A DNA stretch of 40,286 nucleotides from a virus. Lineage: Monodnaviria > Loebvirae > Hofneiviricota > Faserviricetes > Tubulavirales > Inoviridae. The stretch lies in IMG/VR virus record IMGVR_UViG_2874968258_000009; one strand, given 5' to 3'. This document shows positions 37,831 to 38,760 of this stretch, piece by piece. The position numbers and the translations under genes are program-made. Numbering within the stretch: the stretch's first letter is position 1; each line of letters begins with the position of its first letter. Below the pieces are notes generated by a model that searched no databases, was not told the origin of the DNA, and saw only the letters and a list, made by a program, of their open reading frames with translations.

Positions 37831-37931
37831 ATTAACTGTTGATGTGCAACCGTGAAAATCAAAATAGCATAAATTGTGATCTATTCGTCGGAAATATGTG
37901 CAATGCCCACCTAAGGGGTAATGACTCCAAC

Positions 37932-38435
37932 TTATTGATAGTGTTTTATGTTCAGATAATGCCCGATGACTTTGTCATGCAGCTCCACCGATTTTGAGAA
38001 CGACAGCGACTTCCGTCCCAGCCGTGCCAGGTGCTGCCTCAGATTCAGGTTATGCCGCTCAATTCGCTGCGTATATCGCTTGCTGATTACGTGCAGCTTT
38101 CCCTTCAGGCGGGATTCATACAGCGGCCAGCCATCCGTCATCCATATCACCACGTCAAAGGGTGACAGCAGGCTCATAAGACGCCCCAGCGTCGCCATAG
38201 TGCGTTCACCGAATACGTGCGCAACAACCGTCTTCCGGAGACTGTCATACGCGTAAAACAGCCAGCGCTGGCGCGATTTAGCCCCGACATAGCCCCACTG
38301 TTCGTCCATTTCCGCGCAGACGATGACGTCACTGCCCGGCTGTATGCGCGAGGTTACCGACTGCGGCCTGAGTTTTTTAAGTGACGTAAAATCGTGTTGA
38401 GGCCAACGCCCATAATGCGTGCAGTTGCCCGGCAT
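37932..38435 (-). CDS. insB: IS1 InsB
   Basis: Identical to the 4388-4891 product. Confidence 0.9.
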
Positions 38436-38629
38436 CCAACGCCATTCATGGCCATATCAATGATTTTCTGGTGCGTACCGGGTTGAGAAGCGGTGTAAGT
38501 GAACTGCAGTTGCCATGTTTTACGGCAGTGAGAGCAGAGATAGCGCTGATGTCCGGCAGTGCTTTTGCCGTTACGCACCACCCCGTCAGTAGCTGAACAG
38601 GAGGGACAGCTGATAGAAACAGAAGCCAC
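38354..38629 (-). CDS. insA: IS1 InsA
   Basis: Identical to the 4810-5085 product. Confidence 0.9.
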
Positions 38630-38760
38630 TGGAGCACCTCAAAAACACCATCATACACTAAATCAGTAAGTTGGCAGCATCACCCACCTAAGGTTATGAA
38701 CAAATTAAAAGCAGAAATACATTTGTTCAAAACTCACCTGCAAAACTGAACGGGGGAAAT

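Follow-up and report, generated by a model that had tools for sequence, protein, structure and literature searches.

In E. coli K-12 the lsr locus, for uptake of the quorum signal AI-2, has the gene order yneO(-), lsrK(-), lsrR(-), lsrA(+), lsrCDBFG, tam, yneE, with the divergent lsrR and lsrK genes adjoining lsrA, as the initial annotation of the DNA analysed here had described. The lsr promoter is weak and CRP-dependent, with its elements arranged in the order p-lsrR-box, CRPII, CRPI and p-lsrA-box; the p-lsrR box lies at -237 to -197 and the motif TGTGCAAT adjoins CRPI (PMC5137460). The requirement of lsr expression for CRP has also been reported in a recent preprint (bioRxiv 10.64898/2026.06.09.730415). 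A consensus promoter scan detected no sigma-70-like site in the native K-12 lsrR-lsrA intergenic region, which fits a weak, CRP-dependent promoter.

The lsr genes are absent from S. sonnei and S. boydii (Rezzonico and Duffy 2008, PMC2561040). According to the accessible text of Brito et al. 2013 (PMC3595036), which covers 44 E. coli and Shigella genomes, the full lsr operon is missing from all Shigella and from AIEC, and this is significantly associated with intramacrophage replication. That text describes most of the losses as large truncations, accompanied by some small indels and nonsense mutations, and places insertion sequences only beside lsr operons that are still decaying. That S. sonnei, like Shigella at large, has lost lsr is already published, as is the resulting inability of Shigella to import AI-2 via Lsr, and the base-level anatomy reported here is added detail and not a new phenomenon. 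Its significance is mainly one of careful annotation, as a base-resolution account of the loss of AI-2 uptake in one Shigella lineage.

Anatomy of the lsr remnant upstream of lsrA

The window, the whole stretch of 40,286 nt that was analysed, ends in 4441 bp (35846-40286) that are 100% identical to CP044191.1 and AKND01000020.1 and differ by two bases from CP044151.1 and AKNC01000053.1. CP044151 is Shigella sonnei AR-0426 (PMC10924462) and, judged by its identity to named S. sonnei records, the window is S. sonnei DNA. Alignment by blastn to a 27-kb K-12 reference stretch (L001) resolved this region into four collinear blocks and located the gap left by lsrR and lsrK (Table 1). With the K-12 proteins as tblastn queries, neither LsrK nor LsrR had a match in the window, or in an identical sister locus of which 20 kb were searched, in agreement with the absence of both genes noted in the initial annotation. 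The direct search thus covers the window and the sister locus; absence of lsrRK from the genome as a whole rests on the published statements.

Table 1. Positions of lsr-region, IS1 and prophage features in the window, with matching K-12 (L001) coordinates
Feature	Position	Strand	Remarks
Prophage copies	7335-16838, 16839-26342, 26343 to ~35846		
E. coli dif, perfect, 28 bp, GGTGCGCATAATGTATATTATGTTAAAT	7322-7349	-	Left edge of prophage array
Hybrid dif-like sites, GGTGCGCATAATGTAC then phage sequence	16826-16853, 26330-26357, 35833-35860		Unit boundaries and right edge
hipA 3' part and DNA beyond	35846-36777		K-12 L001 5764-6701; blastn
Chimeric pseudogene ORF	36112..37830	-	572 codons; yneO fragment and hipA fragment
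Deletion A junction	36761..36762		~5.2 kb vs K-12; 2 bp (TT) microhomology
Part of yneO	36761-37845		K-12 L001 11919-13003; blastn
Deletion B junction	37845..37846		3349 bp vs K-12 (L001 13004-16352); blastn and junction alignment
Middle of lsrR-lsrA intergenic region (lsr intergenic remnant)	37846..37916	+	K-12 L001 16353-16423; blastn; 71 bp; K-12 -138 to -68 from lsrA ATG; 98.6% identity
CRP-like half-consensus site	37875-37890		Motif scan
TGTGCAAT motif	37897-37904		Adjoins CRP site I
Target-site duplication, left copy, CACCTAAGG	37908..37916		9 bp
IS1, complete	37917..38684	-	Exactly 768 bp; terminal repeats, ORFs, duplication
insB'	38435..37932	-	167 aa
A6C frameshift motif, TTAAAAAAC	38380..38372		IS1 position 305, between insA and insB'
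insA	38629..38354	-	91 aa
lsrA block	38684-40286		K-12 L001 16414-18026; blastn
Target-site duplication, right copy, CACCTAAGG	38685..38693		9 bp
lsrA-proximal stretch	38685..38760	+	76 bp; K-12 -76 to -1
Palindrome, TGAACAAAT...ATTTGTTCA	38697-38729		Right of IS1
lsrA pseudogene	38761..40286	+	Window end is the lsrA stop codon

The IS1 element upstream of lsrA has GGTAATGACTCCAACTTATTGAT as its left terminus and the reverse complement of GGTGATGCTGCCAACTTACTGAT as its right terminus, which we take to be the canonical imperfect ~23-bp IS1 terminal inverted repeats. The InsA ORF matches Pfam Zn_ribbon_InsA and HTH_Tnp_IS1, the InsB' ORF matches DDE_Tnp_IS1, and the two cover positions 1-81 and 75-199, respectively, of the NCBIfam IS1 transposase model NF033558. 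With its ORFs and ends intact, the element is predicted to encode an InsAB' transposase; it is 100% identical to a second copy in the window, 33 kb away at 4373-5140. K-12 has the flanking sequence CACCTAAGG only once at the homologous place, -76 to -68 from the lsrA ATG. That the empty site holds one copy identifies the repeat as a true target-site duplication, not a chance match, and the element as a simple insertion. This is what the initial annotation had proposed, at estimated distances of ~75 bp from lsrA and ~90 bp from the neighbouring ORF; the measured values are 76 bp from the right end of IS1 to the ATG (38761) and 86 bp from its left end to the first codon of the ORF at 37830. A repeat scan returned an 11-nt repeat, as the terminal CC of IS1 extends the 9-bp match by chance. 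The IRL end, with its inward-facing transposase promoter, abuts lsrA, and transposase transcription runs away from lsrA. This inward promoter was the sole match in a consensus promoter scan of the window.

The intact 248-bp intergenic promoter region controlled by CRP and LsrR no longer exists at this locus: -248 to -139 have been deleted and IS1 is inserted at -76/-68. The 110 bp lost to the deletion (termed deletion B) include the p-lsrR box and the best match to the CRP consensus, centred at -172.5 in a consensus scan. In the DNA that survives, motif scanning places a CRP-like site and TGTGCAAT to the left of IS1 and a palindrome to its right. The position of this palindrome, together with the element order documented in PMC5137460, suggests that it is a putative lsrA-side LsrR operator. 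From the positions of the motifs on either side, IS1 appears to part the CRP site from the lsrA-proximal operator and core promoter and, given the published element order and the consensus scan, the insertion alone would be expected to inactivate the lsrA promoter, which is CRP-dependent and already weak. No mapped start of lsrA transcription was found in PMC5137460, PMC4928848, PMC3182856 or bioRxiv 10.64898/2026.06.09.730415.

Independent IS1 insertions are also present in this locus in some E. coli. Strains G3X16-2, 18SZHZ655Rt and MY203L1 have an IS1 in the yneO-lsrK spacer (L002 4641-5338), and WS0115A has one immediately upstream of the lsrR start (L010 3308-4005). These insertions are in spacers of the same locus but at other sites, and the lsr genes are otherwise annotated as intact. 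AT-rich spacers of the lsr locus appear to be recurrent targets for IS1. An apparent match of WS0115A to the S. sonnei insertion site was rejected, as its IS1 lies at a different site, beside lsrR.

Lesions in and beyond lsrA and the course of decay

The lsrA sequence retains its conserved position and 98% nucleotide identity to K-12 lsrA but has two disruptions. Alignment to the K-12 gene revealed a 10-bp deletion after 38929 (K-12 nt 170-179), which shifts the frame at codon 57, and a CAG>TAG nonsense change (C>T) at codon 131 (39141-39143); there are 20 further substitutions. The C-terminal 364 aa still score 682 bits against the LsrA equivalog model NF011967 (cutoff 586). Contigs in 33 blocks of a public collection encode an LsrA truncated to 74 aa.

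The window ends with lsrA, and the downstream DNA is available from a sister locus (L003) that differs from the window by 2 nt over the shared 4441 bp. There, lsrCDB and lsrFG do not follow lsrA. Instead, lsrC is cut after 185 nt and joined, at 11704/11705 of L003, to the first 89 nt of yneE by a third deletion, of 5730 bp, with the loss of lsrC, lsrD, lsrB, lsrF, lsrG, tam and most of yneE.

The 10-bp deletion in lsrA is polymorphic in S. sonnei. It is present in the window, CP044151, CP044191, AKND and AKNC, whereas CP041511 (KCCM 41282) and UGZB01000001 (loci L011 and L013) keep the 10 bp and are otherwise identical to the window across the region. Retention of the 10 bp in these two genomes indicates that the frameshift is a later, sublineage-specific event and that the locus is still decaying, and makes the indel usable as an intraspecies, sublineage marker. 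The initial annotation had read the missing lsrRK together with the lsrA lesions as signs that the AI-2 uptake locus is being dismantled. Both lsrA lesions are real, and the loss of lsrC through yneE in sister genomes and the polymorphic frameshift bear this reading out.

Deletion B, IS1 and the TAG codon are all present in every S. sonnei assembly sampled, so these assemblies do not order the three events; none of them has deletion B with an empty IS1 site. The junctions of deletions A and B and this IS1 site are absent from all 5426 complete E. coli genomes searched. An exact 30-mer spanning the deletion-B junction had no match in genome_contigs, a set with one genome per species that probably does not include S. 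sonnei, or in metagenome_contigs. Short-read contigs of S. sonnei end inside IS1.

We consider it very probable that the lsr (AI-2 uptake) locus of S. sonnei, in the terminus region, has reached an advanced stage of reductive decay through several independent and unrelated mutational events. An illegitimate deletion of 3349 bp, without microhomology, joined yneO codon 29 to position -138, with the loss of lsrK, lsrR, the lsrR promoter, the LsrR box and the best CRP site. IS1 entered the AT-rich remnant at -76/-68 by ordinary transposition, with a 9-bp staggered cut and duplication. The lsrA gene gained its nonsense codon and later, in one sublineage only, the 10-bp frameshift deletion. A 5.2-kb deletion joined yneO to hipA and, beyond the window end, as seen in identical sister genomes, a 5.7-kb deletion took lsrC through yneE. 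As no working lsr gene is left, IS1 presumably has no present function at this site and would be a scar and a bystander, in a locus that selection no longer maintains in this intracellular pathogen.

The same lesions could have accumulated as an ordered and partly selected loss. Deletion of lsrR and lsrK would then have come first and derepressed lsrACDBFG, after which IS1 and the nonsense codon would have been favoured as silencers of a costly and useless transporter, with the whole loss being pathoadaptive for intracellular life. Lesions that strike lsrA expression redundantly (promoter insertion, nonsense codon and frameshift) are compatible with such a sequence, as is the link of operon loss in Shigella and AIEC to intramacrophage replication (PMC3595036). 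Redundant lesions are, however, also expected from neutral decay in an IS-rich pathogen with small populations, deletion B itself would have weakened the promoter by taking the best CRP-consensus site, and no sampled genome is in an intermediate state that orders the events. We therefore regard selected, ordered loss as unlikely. Still more doubtful is its most specific form, in which, once LsrR and LsrK had been lost, selection favoured as silencers both the nonsense codon and the IS1 that parts the CRP site from the lsrA operator, and the segregating 10-bp deletion is the same process continuing within S. sonnei. If true, the locus would illustrate, in nature and on a small scale, compensatory silencing in the wake of a lost regulator.

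The deletion of lsrR and lsrK and the flanking DNA

In addition to its share of the regulatory region, deletion B removed yneO codons 1-28 (84 nt), the yneO-lsrK spacer, lsrK and lsrR, and it leaves position -138 upstream of lsrA joined directly to codon 29 in the yneO-type autotransporter gene. The joint has no microhomology and no IS sequence and lies 71 bp to the left of IS1. The initial annotation had noted that the DNA between lsrA and the neighbouring ORF leaves no room for lsrRK. The genes are indeed missing, but the cause is this defined deletion and not a lack of room.

IS1 would be an obvious candidate for the agent of this loss, either through an IS1-promoted adjacent deletion or through recombination between directly oriented IS1 copies. 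The element is plentiful, with three copies in the window; repeated IS1 insertions at this locus are seen in E. coli (in the yneO-lsrK spacer of G3X16-2 and beside lsrR in WS0115A), and Brito et al. link insertion sequences with decaying lsr operons (PMC3595036). Either process would, however, have left IS1 with non-matching flanks, whereas both 9-bp copies are intact and match the single K-12 copy, and 71 bp of native, collinear intergenic DNA separate the IS1 end from an IS-free joint. Removal of lsrR and lsrK by IS1 is accordingly very improbable. With the native DNA between joint and element and both duplication copies in place, IS1 is not the cause of deletion B: the absence of lsrRK is a discrete 3349-bp deletion, mechanistically unrelated to IS1, and the element, conspicuous as it is, did not take out the regulators.

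Almost no credence is due to an error of assembly, or to an ancestral gene order without lsrRK between the autotransporter gene and lsrA, even though DNA rich in IS elements and repeats is prone to misassembly and the window also contains a triplicated 9.5-kb unit. The 4441 bp are shared by six or more independent NCBI assemblies, four of them chromosome-scale, Logan short-read contigs break inside IS1 as expected, and the joint cuts coding and regulatory DNA that runs on unbroken into lsrK and lsrR in K-12 and thousands of E. coli genomes. On the intact duplication, the IS-free joint and the recurrence in independent assemblies, we rejected IS1-mediated deletion, ancestral absence and misassembly alike.

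The ORF to the left of deletion B had been described as the start of an autotransporter-like gene. This does not hold, as the true 5' end of yneO is among the deleted DNA and the ORF is a yneO'::'hipA chimera. From 37845 down to ~36762 it corresponds to K-12 yneO codons 29 to ~390, and the TTG at 37830, the earliest start-type codon to follow a stop, is not a real start. At deletion A, which removed the 5' third of hipA, all of hipB and ~4.2 kb of yneO, the yneO fragment is fused in frame to hipA from ~codon 165; the reading then goes out of frame and stops at 36112. Positions 34-392 (of 1806) of the NCBIfam model NF011422 (ECSE_1600) match aa 1-359 of the chimera, and Pfam HipA_C matches aa 363-541. 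The full-length ECSE_1600/yneO autotransporter of ~1800 aa, with an ESPR signal peptide, passenger and C-terminal beta-barrel, is not encoded here. The 572-codon ORF should be annotated with caution, as a chimera and not as a gene. Of HipA, the first ~164 residues are missing and the frame shifts near residue 350; with the antitoxin gene hipB gone as well, the hipA/hipB toxin-antitoxin module beside dif is dead.

A filamentous (inovirus-type) prophage of 9504 bp, in three perfect copies arranged head to tail (7335-35859), takes up much of the remainder of the window. Each copy encodes a pIV-like secretin, Zot/pI, a G2P replication protein, G5P, an HTH repressor and a 140-aa unknown protein, together with a 570-aa protein in the pIII position that has no Pfam match and a 264-aa protein with a DpnII/MboI-like nuclease domain. 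The intact dif at the left edge of the array and the hybrid dif-like sites at the boundaries point to XerCD-type integration at the replication terminus, as in the CUS-1, Ypf-phi and CTX-phi-like phages. The otherwise identical sister S. sonnei genomes lack the array, and it is missing in all from six other S. sonnei loci across dif (L003-L006, L011, L013). Of the 5426 complete E. coli genomes, 87 carry the same phage, at up to 100% identity; the INPHARED phage collection contains nothing close to it. Further to the left (1-7300), the ydeQRST fimbrial cluster is reduced to fragments, among them usher pieces at ~1014-1640 and a PapD-like chaperone remnant at 6228-6821, and is broken by IS3-family elements (~1900-4300) and by two IS1 copies, 90 bp apart (4373-5140 and 5231-5998).

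Comparison with known lsr loci and IS1 elements

The IS1 upstream of lsrA shares all of the characteristics of the family (IS1A-type, from E. coli and Shigella): the same 768 bp, 23-bp ends, insA and insB', an A6C -1 frameshift site and a 9-bp duplication. Its target is AT-rich intergenic DNA (34% G+C in K-12), and no feature distinguishes it from known IS1. The intact K-12 lsr locus is collinear with the window, at 96-98% identity wherever sequence survives. Relative to K-12, S. sonnei has three deletions (5.2, 3.35 and 5.7 kb), one IS1, one frameshift and one nonsense codon, and what remains of lsr is the lsrA pseudogene and 185 nt of lsrC. This conforms to the decay pattern described previously (PMC3595036, PMC2561040), a luxS-independent loss of the AI-2 receptor and uptake genes, and the types of lesion are the same. 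Base-level junctions, the yneO'::'hipA chimera and the 10-bp polymorphism go beyond the accessible text of these reports, although these details may already be tabulated in the per-strain lesion data that accompany them.
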